NCBI GenBank assembly: GCA_041690135.1
Contig: JAWLHY010000002.1
Location: 1,200,342 to 1,264,341 of the forward strand
DNA: 64,000 nucleotides
Reading direction: 5' to 3'
From: Armatimonadota bacterium
GTDB taxonomy: Bacteria; Armatimonadota; SYMT01
Shown: positions 1 through 64,000 of the stretch, in pieces
How the letters are laid out: each line of letters begins with the position of its first letter
Numbering within the stretch: the stretch's first letter is position 1
Notes under the pieces: generated by a model
Told to the model about the DNA's origin: nothing
What the model saw: only the letters and a program-made list of their open reading frames with translations
The model's database searches: none
Position numbers and translations under genes: made by a program

Positions 1-1
1 G

Positions 2-1465
2 AGCAGCCTGGCAAAGTTGCTGAATGGGCGCTGGGAACTGCCCCCGGGGAGCGAGCTTCGCAACGCCACCCTCTCTGCTGTGCCCTCGGCGCAGCGCGAA
101 GAGATCGAGTTGCTGCGCAAGGGGTTCAACGCGGCCTGCGCTCCCTGGCTGAACGTGGCTGCCCGAGCCCGCACGCAGGCGCTGGCCGAACTGAAGTCGC
201 GCACCTCCGCGGGGCGGGGCGCGGCGGCGGAGATTGACCACCTGCTGCGACGAACCGGCAAAGTGCCGGATCCCGGTCTGCAGATGTTATCCAGCCTCAG
301 CCAGGGGCAGCGCGAGCAGCTCTTGCTGAGCGGATTTCTCTACCTGCCCTTCGCCAGTATGGATGCGCGCCAGCAAGCGTTGATGCGTCTCTTCCTCCAG
401 GAGAAGGGGATGAAAGAGGCGGAGGCGCTGGCCCACCTGCAGAATGCCGGCCCCCTCTTCTATGCCGAGACGGACCCCTCTACCCTGACGCAGGCCCACT
501 TCGTGATGTGGTTCGACGGCAGCTTCCGCACGTTGACGGAACAGCCGCCCGTGACCCTTTACTCCCGCTCCGGGGGACCGGAGCGTTCGGTGCGTGCTTA
601 TCCCTACCCCGTAGCCGGCGGAGCAAGGCTGGACTACACCGCGGTGGAACGGCACCCACTGCCGCGAGAATTCCGATTCGATCCGGAAGAGGAGTATACC
701 TGGCCCACGATCCTGGAGGCCCTCTCCCGCACCACGCAGTTTGCCCTGGTTTCCGATTGCTTCCAGGCCTCGGAGGATGTGAAGCCGGTAGCCGGGCGCA
801 CTCTGCCCCAGGCCAACTTGCCGGGGGGACGGACCCTGGCGGGGGTGCTGGACGCGCTCTGCCAGCAGTACCGCCGCGTCTGGTGGGTGGAAGACGGCGC
901 GATCTTCCTGCGAGATCGGGAATGGTTCTTTCGCCGGCTGTACGAAGTGCCACCCGCGGTGGAGCAGTCGCTGGAACAGCACCTGAGCCAGCACGGAACA
1001 CTCCCGCCCGCCGGCCTGGCCCTGTTGGGACGCCTCACCAGCCGGCAGATCGAGGGCTGGAGCGTTGCCAGTGCCATGAAGGCCGGCAGCCCCATGGGAG
1101 CGCGCGGGAGCTTCTGGGGTCGGAAGGCGCAGCCTTACCTCGAGCTCTTTGCCAAATTGCCGCTGGTCAGCCAGGGGGAGGCGCACTCGGAAGGCGGTCT
1201 TCGCTTCGACCGGATGCCTCCCGCCGCGAAAACCGCGTTCATGCGGAACCTCCTCATCACCGAAGGCAACGAGGTGATGGAGAAGTTCCCGGAGGTCTAT
1301 TTGCGCATCCACCAGAGCGCTACCCCCGTTCCCGCGGGGAAACGGCAGTTGGGTCGCCTCACCCTGATGTTCACCTATGCACCGGAAGCGCGCTTCCTGG
1401 CCCGGTTCCAGATCCTTTTTCCACTTCCGGGAGGGACCCCGCAGGCCGGAGCCCCTCCCGGGTAG
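2..1465 (+). CDS. Hypothetical protein (5' end lies outside the window)
   Basis: Frame open from base 2 to TAG at 1463-1465; protein-like composition; same strand as the downstream operon. Confidence 0.75.
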   Translation, partial: SSLAKLLNGRWELPPGSELRNATLSAVPSAQREEIELLRKGFNAACAPWLNVAARARTQALAELKSRTSAGRGAAAEIDHLLRRTGKVPDPGLQMLSSLSQGQREQLLLSGFLYLPFASMDARQQALMRLFLQEKGMKEAEALAHLQNAGPLFYAETDPSTLTQAHFVMWFDGSFRTLTEQPPVTLYSRSGGPERSVRAYPYPVAGGARLDYTAVERHPLPREFRFDPEEEYTWPTILEALSRTTQFALVSDCFQASEDVKPVAGRTLPQANLPGGRTLAGVLDALCQQYRRVWWVEDGAIFLRDREWFFRRLYEVPPAVEQSLEQHLSQHGTLPPAGLALLGRLTSRQIEGWSVASAMKAGSPMGARGSFWGRKAQPYLELFAKLPLVSQGEAHSEGGLRFDRMPPAAKTAFMRNLLITEGNEVMEKFPEVYLRIHQSATPVPAGKRQLGRLTLMFTYAPEARFLARFQILFPLPGGTPQAGAPPG

Positions 1466-56890: not shown

Positions 56891-57235
56891 GCTGCGCCTC
56901 CGGACCGACGTCAACAGGCGGAAGGACCTTCATCCTTCCGCCTCCATTGGCCCAACCTGAGCCACATCCGAATTGGCTAAAGTCCAGAGTGGGAGATGGG
57001 ACTCGAAACCGCTCCAACGACCCCAGGAGTTGCTCAAGGTGGGCCAGGGGCTGCCCGGTGGCGACTCGTCGAGCACGTAGTCACCGATGCCCGCACGCGG
57101 GCACCCGGCGTCCAGGTGCGTGGCAAGTTCGAGCCGCTGCCGCTCACCGACGGATAGCGTAGTGAGCGACTGGCCGAAGCGGAGGTAGCCGAGCCCGACG
57201 GCTATGTGCGGACTCTTGTTAGCTTTGGGGCCGGT

Positions 57236-57832: not shown

Positions 57833-58174
57833 TCAGCCTGCAGGCAGAGGCAGCCCGAGACGCTCCGCAATCCACGCGGTCTCCCCGGCACTCCAGGGGG
57901 GCGGAGGCATCACGGAATAATCGATCTCGGAGTCGTAACCACCGCGCTCGTAGGCGAGGGTCATCACCTCCTGCAGATCGAGGGCCGCATCCGGGTCCGG
58001 AGGAAGCAGCGGGACTGGCACCACGGGCAGGGTGTCGGATACCTGGATAGGCCAAACCGGCGCGCGAGGCCGGTTGCTCGCCCGGCTCAGGACGACATAA
58101 TAGGGGGCCGGGGGTGGCGGCGGCTCTACGGGGGGACGCTCACCGGAGCGCAGCAGGTCGATCTCCAGCAGTTT
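57833..58174 (-). pseudogene. C-terminal fragment of a DUF4058 family protein
   Basis: 'LLEIDLLRSGER...LPVVPVPLLPPDPD..LDLQ...Y..IDY'; begins right after the stop of the upstream gene with no N-terminus. Confidence 0.7.
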
Positions 58175-58575: not shown

Positions 58576-59226
58576 TCATTCCTCCACCGAGATCAGCTCC
58601 TGCTCCAGTTCCTCGATCGTGGGGAGGGCGGTGCGGATCTCCTCCGGAAGGCTACCGGTGAGTTGATAGGTGGAGATCCCCATTGGCGTCGACAAATTCC
58701 GGAGTGAGTACTCGACGACCACCTGGTTCTTCGACTTGCAGAGGAGAAGTCCGATGCTGGTTGCGTCATCGGGATGTCGCAAGAGGTCATCTACCACCGC
58801 CTCGATCTCTCGCTCTTCCGCCTCCTTGCCAAGGGACAGGAAATCGAAGTTGTAAGGGTCTTTGAGGAGCTGTGCGGCCAGATCGGACTGGGGAGCGGGG
58901 AGCACCCTCTGGAAGTTGGTAACGGCTTGCCCCTGGCGTTCGTGAAGGCGGCTCTCGATGTGGATCTCCAGAACATTCCGGCTCCAGCCATACTCAATGG
59001 CCTGCCGGGCGTACCAGACACGCTCATCCGGGGTGCTCAACCGGTCCAACAGGCGGACATTGTGACCCCAAGGGATTCGTCCAACAACTTGTTGGACAAT
59101 TGCCTCGTCGGGCCACGCCTCCGCAAAGGCTCGCATATAAAGCAGGTTGGAACGAGAGAACCCCTTCATGGCGGGGAACTCGTGCCGGAGGTCCTGGGAC
59201 AGGCGCTCGATGACCTTCGCTCCCCT
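58576..59226 (-). pseudogene. YhcG/DUF1016 PD-(D/E)XK protein, 5'-truncated with an internal deletion
   Basis: 'GFSRSNL.YM', 'IPWGHN', 'KDPYNFDFL', 'IGLLLC'; the usual ELG.GF...DLLFYH...IELK block is missing between EREIE and AVVDD. Confidence 0.8.
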
Positions 59227-59319
59227 GGGAATTGTGCAACAACCTGTTGCACAGTTCCCCGTGCGGTAGATAGTTTCCCAATGATGCGCGCACGGCCCCA
59301 CCGAAGTGGCACTCGTCCC

Positions 59320-59455
59320 TTTCGCCCCCTTTTCCGCGTCATTCCGCGCATTCCCATACGGGCAAGCTCGCGGGCAATCCAAGATCGCAGTCTCCTTCCG
59401 CTCTGCTTTGTTCCTTTCCGCATTATTCCGCGTCGTTCCGCGTGTTCCGCGGGCA
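59320..59455. repeat. Low-complexity TTCCGCG 9-10-bp period repeats (also at 53126-53153)
   Basis: Repeated ttccgcgNN units. Confidence 0.6.
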
Positions 59456-59499: not shown

Positions 59500-60123
59500 T
59501 CAGGAGCTGACGTAGGCTGCCAGGTGCTGGCCCGTGAGGGTGGAGCGCGCCGCCACCAGGTCGGCCGGGGTGCCTTCGAACACGACCCGACCGCCGTCGT
59601 GGCCGGCGCCGGGCCCGAGGTCGATGATCCAGTCCGCGTGGGCCATCACTGCCTGGTGGTGTTCGATCACGATTACGGACTTTCCGGAGTCGACTAGCCG
59701 GTCCAGCAGCCCCAGCAGTTGCCGGAGGTCGGCCAGGTGGAGGCCGGTGGTCGGTTCGTCGAGGACGTAGACTCCGCCGTCGGTGCCCATGTGCGTCGCA
59801 AGCTTGAGCCGCTGCCGCTCGCCGCCGGAGAGGGTGGTGAGGGGTTGGCCCAGGCGCACGTAGCCGAGGCCCACGTCCGCCAGGCGCCGCAGGATCGCGT
59901 GCGCGGCGGGAGTCTTCGCGGGGCCGCCGGCGAAGAACTCCTCGGCCTCGGTCACCGGGAGGTCGAGCACCTCGGCGATGTGGAGACCACCCAGGCGGTA
60001 GTCCAGGACCGCTGCCTGGAACCGCTTCCCCTCGCAATCCTCGCACACGGTGCTGACGCCGGCCATCGTTACCAGGTCGGTGTAGATCACCCCGGCGCCG
60101 TTGCAGGTGGGGCAGGCGCCTTC
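59500..60123 (-). pseudogene. C-terminal fragment of a UvrA-like (class II/DrrC-like) ABC ATPase
   Basis: 'GACPTCNG...CEDCEGKRF', 'LSGGERQRLKLA', 'LDEPTTGLH', 'IEH'; homology stops at about 60123. Confidence 0.85.
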
Positions 60124-60188
60124 GACGAACCGCACTATGTTGGCAACCGCTGCTATGCAGGCTTGACAGCCGGAAGAGGTTATGTCTT

Positions 60189-61457
60189 ATGTCAATGAGT
60201 GTGTCGTGGAAGGCGGGAAATACGGAGATTCTGCAGCGTACCGTCGCGCGGGCGCTGCAGTTCATGAGCGTCCACGAGGGCCAGGTCCTAACCAAAGGAA
60301 TCGTAGGGCTGGAATTCGCCGACACCGTTCTCGCTCATCATCTAGCACTGCCGGGCGTTCGCCAGCGTGACGAGGCTCGTGGGCTGGTACATCAGGCGCT
60401 AACGAAGCTGCCGTTACAGCCGCAAAAGGATCTTCCAACTCTAGCTGCATTGATCGAGGAGGAGCTAAAGCAGCGGACCGCACAGCGTTCGAACGAGTTT
60501 CGACTTCTAATGCCGCTGAACGTGCGTCGCGAGCACGCGGCGAAAAGACGATCCGTCACGTTGCTTGGGACTGAGTTGCGGTTTACCTCATGGCGCCAAA
60601 TCCGGCGCGGATTTGACTTCGAAGAATGGAAAAGGAATATCGAGATCTTCGCTGAATGGCCTCAAGACTTATTCTCGGAACACGTGCCGGTGATGACTAA
60701 GATCCGCGCTAGGGATGTTGACACCGCCCTTCGGGTCGGGTCCGAAGCGTTCGAGATGCTCCGTTCGCTGTTGAACCTTTCCGTTCAGTTCGAGCGCGTG
60801 CAGATAGTGTCCGGCGGTCACGTTAGGCCTTTGGGTGGAATCCTTGAGTGCCCCGTGGGCGGTGTGTTTGACGCCTCCGGAGCATATGTTAACTATTTTA
60901 CATCGCCGCACTCGTACCGCGGCGAGGGTTCGGTGAAACGTGACGCGCCATCGTTCGAGCGGATCCGGTTCCTGTTGAAGGCGCTTCGAGATGCGCCGGA
61001 CGAGAGGAGCACTACGGCGCTGCTGAGGGACGCGGTTTCCGGCTATGGGAGAGCGCTCGACTCGAGTGCGCCCTGGGAAGCCTTTCTCGCGCTTTGGCAA
61101 GTCCTTGAGCGGATTACTTTCCCCGGCCAAGAGCGTTACGCTATGGACGACGTATGCCGCCGTGCCGCGGTCTTGGTGAGAGGCGAGCCGTTGCTGGAAG
61201 ATGTTTTGCCGGCTTTGTCGGCAGTTAGGAACGATCTGGTGCACGCTGGGAAATTCCACGACTGGGGAGACCAAGACGTGCGACTGCTCAAGATGCTAGT
61301 GGAGTTCTCCATCCGAGGTCTACTTCGCATCCGCATGCGCCTGCCGAAAATCGCGGACCTGATGATCTACTACGATCAGTCCCGCGTAGCACGCGGCAAC
61401 CCGAGGGACCTGGAAGCAAAGATACGAATTGGGAAGCTGGTTCTCCGCAGCAAGTAA
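60189..61457 (+). CDS. HEPN domain protein (ApeA/MAE_28990-like), putative defence RNase
   Basis: C-terminal 'AFLALWQVLERI...VRNDLVHAG' (RxxxxH); visibly lower GC. Confidence 0.75.
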   Translation: MSMSVSWKAGNTEILQRTVARALQFMSVHEGQVLTKGIVGLEFADTVLAHHLALPGVRQRDEARGLVHQALTKLPLQPQKDLPTLAALIEEELKQRTAQRSNEFRLLMPLNVRREHAAKRRSVTLLGTELRFTSWRQIRRGFDFEEWKRNIEIFAEWPQDLFSEHVPVMTKIRARDVDTALRVGSEAFEMLRSLLNLSVQFERVQIVSGGHVRPLGGILECPVGGVFDASGAYVNYFTSPHSYRGEGSVKRDAPSFERIRFLLKALRDAPDERSTTALLRDAVSGYGRALDSSAPWEAFLALWQVLERITFPGQERYAMDDVCRRAAVLVRGEPLLEDVLPALSAVRNDLVHAGKFHDWGDQDVRLLKMLVEFSIRGLLRIRMRLPKIADLMIYYDQSRVARGNPRDLEAKIRIGKLVLRSK

Positions 61458-61555
61458 GGGCTGAAGTTGTGGCGCGACGCAACCCCTCGACTTGCTGGTC
61501 CTTGCCAGTCATCCGCATCTTCCCGAGGTAATCCGGCGGCTCCTACACAAAAGCA

Positions 61556-64000
61556 ATGAATTATCCCCAACTCATAGCTCAACTAGCAACTGTGCAGCCG
61601 GTCTCCGAGACCGAGGTGCGAACCAAGATCGCCATACCTCTTTTCTCGGCTCTGGGATGGAAGGATGCCGGTCGAGCCGAAGAGTTCCCGGTTTACGGGC
61701 ACGGTGGTGGCACGGCGCTCCCGCCTAAGTTCGCAGACATCCTTTACTTCAGCAGTGACGACCACCCAAGCCATAGAGACCGAAGCCAACGGCAGTGGGT
61801 GATGGAACACTCGCTGCTCGTGGTGGAACTCAAGAAGCCTTCCGAGACCATTGAAGTCGAAGGACAGGCGCAGTTCTACGCAGTCTGGACACGAGCACCG
61901 TTCTATGTCATCACGAACGGACGCGAACTCGCCGTCTACCGCATCGAGCCATTCTTTCATGACGTGTTGGAGCTCTGCTTTCCTCTGTGCGAACTCGCCA
62001 GCCACTGGCAGAAACTCAAAGGCCTGCTTGCTCCAAGCAATGTCGCCGAATACTGTATCGCCAACAAGCTCAAGGCCATCAATCCCGCAGAAAGCAGATA
62101 CGGGGATTACGTGAGCGCTTCCCTGCTTCTCTACGATGCCAGACTTCGGCAGTCGCTCTCGCGCTCTGTCACCGCGCACTCCGGGCTGCCCACCCTCGCT
62201 GCACCAATCTGCCTCAGCGCGCCCGATCCCGCATTTTCAGAGGTGAGTGCAGCGCCCTATGCGGAGGTCGTGGAGCAGCACCGCACTTGTGTACTGCTGT
62301 CGGAACCAGGAGGCGGCAAGACCTACCTGCTGCAACTCATCGCACGCGACGCGTTCGCCGCCAATCTCCAGTCAGAAGCCAATCCTGTTCCGGTCTTCAT
62401 CCCGGCGAAGCTTTGGAGCCGCTCGTTCCGGCACCTCGCCCAGGCGGTTCACCAGGCGGTGCGCCCGTTCTCTCCGGACTCGTTACTAGTGGAGGTCGAG
62501 GCCGAACTCCGTGCCGGGAGATTCCTCATCTTAATTGATGGCTTGGATGAAGTCCTCCAAGCACCTGACGCCCTGACCTACGAAATTCTTCAGATCGCAC
62601 AGTCGACCCGATCGCGGCTGATCGTGACGTGCCGCTCCAGCGACTACCATCAGCAGTTGCAAGACCAGTTCGACGCCTTTGTCATCGATCCGCTCACTCC
62701 GGAGCAGATTGAGCAGTATGCCTCCCGGGTCTTGGGCCGAGCCGGCGAGCACTTTCTCTATTCCATCGGCCCCGACCTGTCTGATCTGGTCCGCAACCCA
62801 CTGCTCCTGATGATGACCATCTTGGTGATGGACAGAGCGCCAGGACACCGCCTTCCCAAGAACCGCGCTAACCTGTATCGGCACTTCGCTACCCTGCTCC
62901 TCACCGAGTGGCAGGCGCGCCGAGCCGATGAGGGAGCCTTTGTTGTTGATCAGGAAACGAAAGAAGCAGCCCTGGCGCAATACGCCTGGCAGACCCGGAG
63001 ACGGATCCCCTCCGATCGGGTCCTCAACGCAGCTATCCAAGCGCAGCATCCGATTTGGCCGGCGCCAATGGTTCGACGGGAGTTGTTGAAGTCTGGGCTT
63101 TTGGTTCCCACGGCTCACGGGCCTGATTTCTTTCATCCTTCGTTCCGGGAGTTCTTTGCTGCACTTCATCTGGCGACCAGCCCGGACGCAGACGTACGCT
63201 CGTTCATCGAGTCGGAGCACCGTGACGACCGCAGTAGGGAGGTTTTCGCCTTCCTGGCGGGTCTCCTACAGGATGCTGACCGACAGGCCCTTCTACTCGA
63301 CTTCTTGGAGGAGGCCAACCTCCGGCTGTATCGGGCGTGTCTTTTGTCTCGTTTCGAACGGATTACGGGCGGCCCGGCGTCGTGGAGCGCCAGCCAATCC
63401 TTTGACTACCTCAACCAACTGCGGCTCACCTACGAGCGGATCGTCGGCGCGCTGTTTCCTGAGATCAAGCTCTTGCTGCCACCCTGGAACGCTGCGGATG
63501 ACGTACCCCAAGAAGCGGCATATGGTTATGAGCTCCAGATCGAGGGCGGAATTGACCCTACGGTTCCTTCTGCGGCCTACGAACTCCGAGCGGTAGCACC
63601 GACGGATCCGACACCACGGGTTGTAGTCAGAGAGTTCCGCGGAGTCCCATTCATCACCATCGGCGGGGCAGATGGTGCACGGCACACCATTGCTCTTTCC
63701 AGTTTGTCCCTTGGCAATCAGAGGAGCCATGACCTTCGTTACGCCGATCAAGGGCTAGATAGTGCTAGGGAGATAGCCTTTAGGGAAATCCGTAAGTCGG
63801 TCTACTCTCTTCTTGATGCCCGGAGGCTCGGATACGCCGCGAGCTACTACCTGATCTGCGAATCGGCGGAGCGTTACCTTCAATCGCTAAACCATGCCGC
63901 GAAGCGCAAGCGCAGTGCTGAATTTAGGGAGCTCCGTGATCTTTCCTTGTACACTGTCCCGCTTGACCACATCCTGCACCTGCTCGTAGGCTGGTATGAG
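61556..64000 (+). CDS. HsdR-N-like PD-(D/E)XK nuclease fused to a NACHT/STAND NTPase (3' end outside the window)
   Basis: My translation: 'SETEVRTKIAIPLFSALGW...ADILYF...VVELKK...QAQFY...ITNG'; Walker A 'SEPGGGKT'; Walker B 'LILIDGLDEV'; 'IVTCR'; 'NPLLL'; 'FFHPSFREFFAA'; no stop seen before the window end, so absent from the ORF track. Confidence 0.88.
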   Translation, partial: MNYPQLIAQLATVQPVSETEVRTKIAIPLFSALGWKDAGRAEEFPVYGHGGGTALPPKFADILYFSSDDHPSHRDRSQRQWVMEHSLLVVELKKPSETIEVEGQAQFYAVWTRAPFYVITNGRELAVYRIEPFFHDVLELCFPLCELASHWQKLKGLLAPSNVAEYCIANKLKAINPAESRYGDYVSASLLLYDARLRQSLSRSVTAHSGLPTLAAPICLSAPDPAFSEVSAAPYAEVVEQHRTCVLLSEPGGGKTYLLQLIARDAFAANLQSEANPVPVFIPAKLWSRSFRHLAQAVHQAVRPFSPDSLLVEVEAELRAGRFLILIDGLDEVLQAPDALTYEILQIAQSTRSRLIVTCRSSDYHQQLQDQFDAFVIDPLTPEQIEQYASRVLGRAGEHFLYSIGPDLSDLVRNPLLLMMTILVMDRAPGHRLPKNRANLYRHFATLLLTEWQARRADEGAFVVDQETKEAALAQYAWQTRRRIPSDRVLNAAIQAQHPIWPAPMVRRELLKSGLLVPTAHGPDFFHPSFREFFAALHLATSPDADVRSFIESEHRDDRSREVFAFLAGLLQDADRQALLLDFLEEANLRLYRACLLSRFERITGGPASWSASQSFDYLNQLRLTYERIVGALFPEIKLLLPPWNAADDVPQEAAYGYELQIEGGIDPTVPSAAYELRAVAPTDPTPRVVVREFRGVPFITIGGADGARHTIALSSLSLGNQRSHDLRYADQGLDSAREIAFREIRKSVYSLLDARRLGYAASYYLICESAERYLQSLNHAAKRKRSAEFRELRDLSLYTVPLDHILHLLVGWYE

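Follow-up and report, generated by a model that had tools for sequence, protein, structure and literature searches.

The closest described counterparts of the two genes reported here are bacterial NACHT (bNACHT) and Avs proteins on one side and the HEPN protein ApeA on the other. Passages of the preprint by Kibby et al. (10.1101/2022.07.19.500537) describe bacterial NACHT proteins as carrying swapped effectors on a conserved chassis, identify the effector of bNACHT25 as an Mrr-like restriction endonuclease (REase), and state that bNACHT genes rarely lie in operons and that such operons are poorly conserved. Lee et al. 2026 (PMC13581612) report 589 clades and use an effector domain together with defense-type neighbours as criteria. 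ApeA is described, in sections of a further preprint (10.64898/2026.01.26.701840), as a single-protein tRNA anticodon nuclease, and R502 of Ec2ApeA is given there as the residue changed in the catalytic mutant. Here we analyzed a 64,000-nucleotide stretch (the window) from an Armatimonadota bacterium (GenBank assembly GCA_041690135.1, contig JAWLHY010000002.1, positions 1,200,342 to 1,264,341), focusing on two co-oriented open reading frames (ORFs) at its right end. ORF1 is predicted to encode a HEPN nuclease, and ORF2 a nuclease-NACHT protein. Our analysis makes it likely that a 4.5-kb foreign cassette, lying in an insertion hotspot that adjoins the 3' end of a uvrA-like gene, carries these genes as two autonomous, single-gene anti-phage candidates.

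The initial annotation had read, from the ATG at 61556, an ORF of more than 800 codons with HsdR-N-type nuclease motifs (E...D...ELK...Q..Y...TNG), a NACHT module, and an unrecognized C-terminal region, and all of these features are borne out. The frame runs without a stop through the remaining 815 codons of the window and ends 603 bases beyond it, giving a full-length ORF2 of 1015 amino acids (aa). The protein collection holds a 933-aa version (P0002) that starts 82 codons later; we prefer the longer form because an alignment of seven relatives runs collinear over the whole protein, residue 1 included. In this alignment, E42/E43, D61, E91-L92-K93, Q104, Y108, and T120-N121-G122 are invariant, as are the Walker A motif GGGKT (252-256), the Walker B motif DGLDE (328-332), R360, and H527. 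D61, E91, K93, Q104, and Y108 are also invariant across 20 N-domains. ORF2 therefore carries the catalytic D...E-x-K signature, here on a predicted PD-(D/E)xK fold. HSDR_N_2 (PF13588) aligns with residues 58-131 at a sub-threshold 19 bits (cut-off 25), and the ORF2 relatives P0004-P0008 carry precomputed PF13588 assignments. NACHT (PF05729) matches ORF2 well above its cut-off (E 5.3e-12; 46.3 bits versus 26.7). The three-part bNACHT layout of N-terminal effector, NACHT, and C-terminal region is thus present, the last part having a presumed sensor role. On these grounds, ORF2 is a predicted REase-NACHT protein, resembling nucleotide-binding leucine-rich repeat (NLR) proteins, of a rare bacterial family.

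The AF2 model of ORF2, built from a 21-sequence alignment, has a mean predicted local distance difference test score (pLDDT) of 79.5, and the predicted folds of ORF2 and ORF1 are both confident. The C-terminal region of ORF2 has no Pfam match; an Atlas search with residues 600-1015 reached a top score of 0.88, which is a lead only. PADLOC returned weak matches only, all with N-terminal parts of restriction-modification enzymes, and none of its Avs models matched. EruA (NCBIfam NF058535) reached 53.4 bits, far below its cut-off of 1000, and aligned over the NACHT part only. Profile searches of PDB sequences with full-length ORF2 and with its N-domain gave no usable match.

A word-indexed search with ORF2 gave five full-length relatives at 35-40% identity and one fragment, the closest named relative being that of Ammoniphilus sp. 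YIM 78166 (genome G401). At E <= 1e-30, the family was found in none of 400 further genomes from the same phylum as the window. Across genome and metagenome contigs, we located 90 loci (23 + 67) of the ORF2 family or its N-domain, of which 22 cover most of the protein. Neighbours were listed for 19 ORF2-relative loci and scanned with Pfam or PADLOC for eight. Recognized defense-type genes lie beside five of these eight: an Mrr nuclease upstream and a PIN gene plus AAA_21 ATPase downstream (L003), SIR2 and HerA (L037), DndB (L008), AbiEi (L035), and Fic with a serine recombinase (L012). Of the remaining three, L010 adjoins DUF2971, L009 a UDP-galactopyranose mutase, and L011 an AAA_13 ATPase together with a large AAA/NPHP3_N protein. 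Since the neighbour set differs from locus to locus, the ORF2 family has no fixed partner.

Four loci, from Peribacillus, Niallia, a Lutibacter metagenome-assembled genome (MAG), and Planococcus, form a sister branch that has the NACHT and C-terminal region of ORF2 but carries an Avs1b-like protease as its N-domain (PADLOC 9.4e-21). Upstream lies a gene for an Avs1a/LmuA-like protein of the metallo-β-lactamase (MBL) fold, 405-408 aa long (PADLOC 1.8e-89), whose end overlaps the start of the NACHT gene or falls 11 bp short of it. A different N-domain on a conserved NACHT and C-terminal chassis is effector swapping, as Kibby et al. describe it for bacterial NACHT proteins.

The ORF2-type nuclease N-domain, at ~44% identity, also heads ~500-aa proteins on many gut Clostridia contigs (L013-L019, L039-L081). 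The remainder of these proteins has no Pfam match, and they may constitute a separate nuclease-effector family. Elsewhere in the window's genome (G000), a 1193-aa open frame shows weak NACHT-type similarity to the ORF2-family profile.

ORF1 is the co-oriented HEPN gene with an RNDLVH motif that had been noted 98 bp upstream of ORF2. Across a 65-sequence alignment of the ORF1 family, W303, R347, and H352 are invariant and N348 is nearly so, which corresponds to the HEPN motif RNxLVH. ORF1 thus combines the R-x4-6-H motif with the four-helix HEPN fold, the two features by which the superfamily is recognized. When the ORF1 model was searched with VIA-align, 14 of the 15 best rows were HEPN or nucleotidyltransferase helical substrate-binding domains, all at residues ~270-390. 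Foldseek with the same model returned nothing meaningful (best E 0.1 in the PDB and 0.037 among the viral structures of BFVD). The ORF1-family profile matches the solved structure of Ec2ApeA (PDB 9hxb) with E 1.2e-4, over two HEPN helices only, and places R347 on R502.

ORF1 itself matched nothing in Pfam (at E <= 1), PADLOC, or NCBIfam. Among the 65 family members, HEPN_Apea (PF18739) matched one (E 0.05) and MauJ weakly matched eight; nine PADLOC families were each matched by single members, and ApeA was not among these nine. The nearest Atlas clusters are unnamed, with proteins of ~415-447 aa, and the nearest named clusters (scores 0.90 and 0.88) have HEPN_Apea in 15-17% of their members. 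ORF1 is therefore of the ApeA kind but, by current models, not a member of the ApeA family.

A word-indexed homologue search with ORF1 found only ORF1 itself. This reflects the sensitivity limit of that search, because a full HMMER search of 1.84 billion representatives, clustered at 50% identity, gave 734 clusters at E <= 1e-3 (197 at E <= 1e-10 and 36 at E <= 1e-30). Among the best 150 of the 734 matches, nearly all proteins are 400-450 aa long. No longer, fused forms were found, the longest of these 150 being 484 aa, which is weak evidence. The family had no matches in phages or viral contigs; a plasmid search gave one record with ORF1 as query and none with P0012 or P0045. One of 400 further genomes from the window's phylum has a family member, as do 3 of 67 genomes in the order of that one. 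In total, five other places were located, one each in G234, G816, and G828 and two copies on a Salinibaculum plasmid. By its conserved residues and predicted fold, we assign ORF1 as a putative HEPN nuclease of the ApeA-like kind, from a family that is large and unnamed.

ORF1 and ORF2 are of foreign origin, as indicated by their low GC, the near-absence of their families in the phylum, and an empty site in relatives. The lower GC noted in the initial annotation holds against the whole genome: ORF1 has 58.1% GC (GC at third codon positions, GC3, 0.67) and ORF2 58.2% (GC3 0.66), compared with 65.1% genome-wide, where only 1.2% of 3020 3-kb segments are at or below 59%. The uvrA-like gene has a GC3 of 0.90. 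In the relatives G086 and G005 the site is empty, with the DUF1801 gene ~75-115 bp past the uvrA stop. In G000 the plus-strand order is the DUF1801 gene, a DUF1016/YhcG-like ORF, a 625-nucleotide (nt) copy of the uvrA-like 3' end, ORF1, ORF2, a 108-nt copy, ORF3, and the intact uvrA-like gene (Table 1). Every uvrA-like 3' copy ends at the TGA stop, and the three uvrA 3' ends bracket two cargo slots. In G021 another insert, of 1062 bp, lies between 107-nt gene-end repeats that are 91% identical. The stop-codon end of the uvrA-like gene is a recurrent insertion hotspot, with different cargo between duplicated gene ends. One copy of the 625-nt segment came with the foreign DNA, because the copies (85% identity) are as far from each other as from the orthologues in other genera (77-85%). 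The ORFs scanned near the hotspot included no integrase.

Table 1. Features of the cassette, its surroundings, and related loci. Window positions above 64000 are window-equivalent positions beyond the window end; ranges in residues refer to the encoded protein.
Feature	Position (window or residues)	Position in locus record	Strand	Description
ORF1	60189..61457		+	422 aa, ATG start, intact frame
ORF1 N-terminal region	residues ~1-260			alpha/beta, fold without assignment
ORF1 HEPN domain	residues ~270-390			C-terminal; RNDLVH at 347-352
Intergenic gap	61458..61555		+	98 bp, between co-oriented ORF1 and ORF2
ORF2	61556..64000, on to 64603	L002 5556-8603	+	ATG start, intact
ORF2 nuclease domain	residues 1 to ~165			predicted PD-(D/E)xK, HsdR-N / type IIG-like
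ORF2 NACHT module	residues ~235-600			NBD-HD1-WHD-HD2, preceded by a linker
ORF2 C-terminal region	residues ~610-1015			mixed alpha/beta, conserved, presumed sensor
Displaced uvrA-like 3' copy	59500-60124	L002 3500-4124	-	last 625 nt, 85% identical; left cassette boundary
Second uvrA-like 3' copy	64670-64775	L002 8670-8775		last 108 nt, 76% identical
Intact uvrA-like gene	66375-68879	L002 10375-12879	-	class II UvrA, 834 aa
ORF3	64948-65937	L002 8948-9937	+	329 aa, pentapeptide repeats then Ion_trans_2 channel
DUF1016_N/YhcG PDDEXK nuclease-like ORF	58576-59382		-	268 aa, partial domain coverage, GC 59.6%
Decayed uvrA-like and DUF4058 fragments	57021-57200 and 57833-58021			
Intact DUF4058 copy		L002 14543-15400		
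Gene-end repeats of G021		L112 8654-8760, 9716-9822		107 nt each
Sister branch (Peribacillus / Niallia / Lutibacter MAG / Planococcus)		L004 6214-10604; L005 5977-10367; L006 280-4661; L007 5986-10169		
N-domain-headed Clostridia protein (example)		L039 7920-9476		
Open frame with weak NACHT-type similarity	G000:C1:206997-208256	L098, L099		

The hotspot holds further genes and remnants. ORF3, with a GC of 51.5%, occupies its own slot beside the uvrA-like gene and matches the Hailong effector HalA (NCBIfam) weakly, at 35.9 bits where the cut-off is 250; possibly, ORF3 is a further membrane-disrupting defense effector, without a partner. The DUF1016_N/YhcG ORF, which has the DUF1801 gene on one side and the displaced uvrA fragment on the other, is missing at that place in G086 and G005. 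DUF4058 is represented by an intact copy and by a fragment of 62 aa in the region. The extra decayed fragments, together with a gene order unlike that of G021, point to repeated rearrangement around the hotspot.

With respect to the pairing of the two genes, the initial annotation had left open an undescribed two-component system or two adjacent independent systems. The evidence favours the second possibility, and a conserved two-component system finds no comparative support in the sequences. No ORF1 relative was detected by tblastn at any of the 90 ORF2-family or N-domain loci (best E 4.8). Likewise, the ORF1-family profile found no member in the five genomes with the closest ORF2 relatives, in two with the sister branch, or in the 401 genomes of the phylum of G401. 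From the ORF1 side, the four family places examined showed neither a NACHT nor a STAND gene (G234, G816, and G828 by Pfam scan, one Salinibaculum copy by annotation). Conserved linkage had been proposed as the check on the pairing, and the two genes are not linked in the other genomes and loci searched.

A functional two-gene system could still operate at this one locus, with a NACHT sensor-DNase and a HEPN RNase making a dual attack on DNA and RNA, or with ORF1 backing up ORF2 or guarding it against phage inhibitors. The two genes share one cassette, flanked on either side by a copy of the uvrA 3' end; the gap between the genes holds no uvrA remnant, and they have the same orientation and matching GC and GC3. 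The 98-bp gap shows no terminator-like and no plus-strand promoter-like site in a consensus scan that overall did no better than on shuffled sequence. Furthermore, the sister branch keeps an upstream partner close in size to ORF1. Against this stand the missing co-occurrence described above, the presence of an effector domain within ORF2 itself, and, as weak evidence, the lack of fused ORF1-family forms. The shared slot and composition indicate that the genes were transferred together, or at least now occupy one slot, from which cooperation does not follow. We therefore regard cooperation as unlikely. If true, a cooperating pair, with one trigger and two nucleic-acid targets or with a HEPN back-up, would amount to an undescribed two-gene NLR system specific to this lineage.

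Several points weigh against two autonomous defense genes. The single cassette without a uvrA remnant between the genes, their matching composition and co-orientation, and the lack of a predicted terminator would fit an operon as well. The separate upstream partner in the sister branch means that two-gene forms exist in this lineage. The linkage test from the ORF1 side is thin, with five other places located and neighbours looked at in four. The fold of the ORF2 C-terminal region was looked at only within the whole-model search. Finally, no named defense model reaches its cut-off for ORF1 or ORF2, and it is we who infer defense itself.

This last point bears on whether one or both genes act outside anti-phage defense, ORF1 as a HEPN toxin or as an enzyme of RNA processing in some other role, and ORF2 as a NACHT signaling ATPase. 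No defense-specific model exceeds its threshold for either protein, and the ORF1-family genes of G234, G816, and G828 lie among metabolic or housekeeping genes: the G234 gene, which has an internal TAG, is flanked by URO-D genes, that of G816 adjoins a URO-D gene and a methylase-Mrr fusion, and that of G828 is flanked by genes for a PfkB kinase and an AdoHcyase. However, ORF2 combines a nuclease effector with defense-type genes beside five of eight scanned relatives, the two criteria of Lee et al., and each of the families has a patchy distribution and has moved horizontally. In addition, the ORF1-family genes of G816 and of the Salinibaculum plasmid adjoin restriction-modification genes, one copy of the latter according to the record annotation. 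We thus consider a role outside defense improbable. That ORF1 and ORF2 only look intact and are inactive, decaying cargo of a scrambled hotspot is very hard to credit: the region is rich in fragments (uvrA pieces, the 62-aa DUF4058 piece, the partial DUF1016/YhcG ORF) and the G234 relative has its internal TAG, but both ORFs are full-length for their families, keep all invariant catalytic residues, and have confidently predicted folds.

For two autonomous single-gene candidates, the triggers, substrates, oligomerization, and phage protection that we infer would be as follows. ORF2 would recognize a phage-derived trigger through its C-terminal region, as the analogy with Avs and bNACHT proteins suggests. 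NTP-dependent oligomerization driven by the NACHT module would then join the PD-(D/E)xK domains, and the gathered nuclease domains would degrade DNA, so that the infection is stopped or the cell is killed. ORF1 probably dimerizes through its HEPN domain, forming a composite R/H active site, and its N-terminal two thirds may keep the protein inactive until an infection cue. Active ORF1 would cleave RNA, as ApeA does at tRNA anticodon loops, leading to abortive infection.

The novelty of these findings is modest, because both architectures are already described in kind, and none of them overturns current views. We found no published description of this HSDR_N-NACHT family, and the clade may be listed in the supplements to the Lee et al. 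and Kibby et al. studies. The ORF2 clade, a predicted bacterial NLR-like group with an HsdR-N-type effector, a non-repeat C-terminus, and effector swapping, is a candidate for recognizing a new phage trigger. The analysis also flags a large unnamed ApeA-like HEPN family, with 734 clusters, a confident model, and no Pfam entry, and documents a small hotspot at a uvrA-like stop codon.

The initial annotation had treated a full-length match to a named system as the test of novelty, and neither gene has such a match in PADLOC, NCBIfam, or Pfam. Compared with Avs1, ORF2 has neither the protease domain nor an MBL partner; the likeness belongs to the sister branch (L004-L007), which combines an Avs1a-like gene with an Avs1b-like N-domain and shares the NACHT and C-terminal region of ORF2. 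Even there, the similarity to Avs1b covers the first 237 residues only, and the sensor is much shorter than in the PADLOC Avs1b model (1924 positions).

ORF1 differs from ApeA in size (422 aa versus 593 for Ec2ApeA), in aligning through the HEPN helices alone, and in its alpha/beta N-terminal region, ApeA being described as predominantly helical. It matches neither HEPN_Apea nor ApeA_NTD1 (PF18862), nor any PADLOC model. In common with ApeA, ORF1 has a C-terminal HEPN domain preceded by non-catalytic domains and belongs to a family of stand-alone genes; its RNxxVH motif aligns with the catalytic R502, and the helix-1 motif L.LWQ.LE aligns too.

For ORF2, the comparison is with bNACHT25 and the nuclease-bearing Avs proteins of Lee et al. 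The nuclease of ORF2 resembles the HsdR-N / type IIG N-terminal kind and not Mrr or Cap4, its last 400 residues are mixed alpha/beta with no Pfam match and not TPR or LRR repeats, and it has no full-length match to a PADLOC model of the Avs/bNACHT type or to an NCBIfam equivalog. What ORF2 shares with these proteins is the order of an REase-fold N-terminus, NACHT, and a presumed C-terminal sensor region, in a single-unit gene that lies in defense-type contexts and whose effector is exchanged between close relatives.

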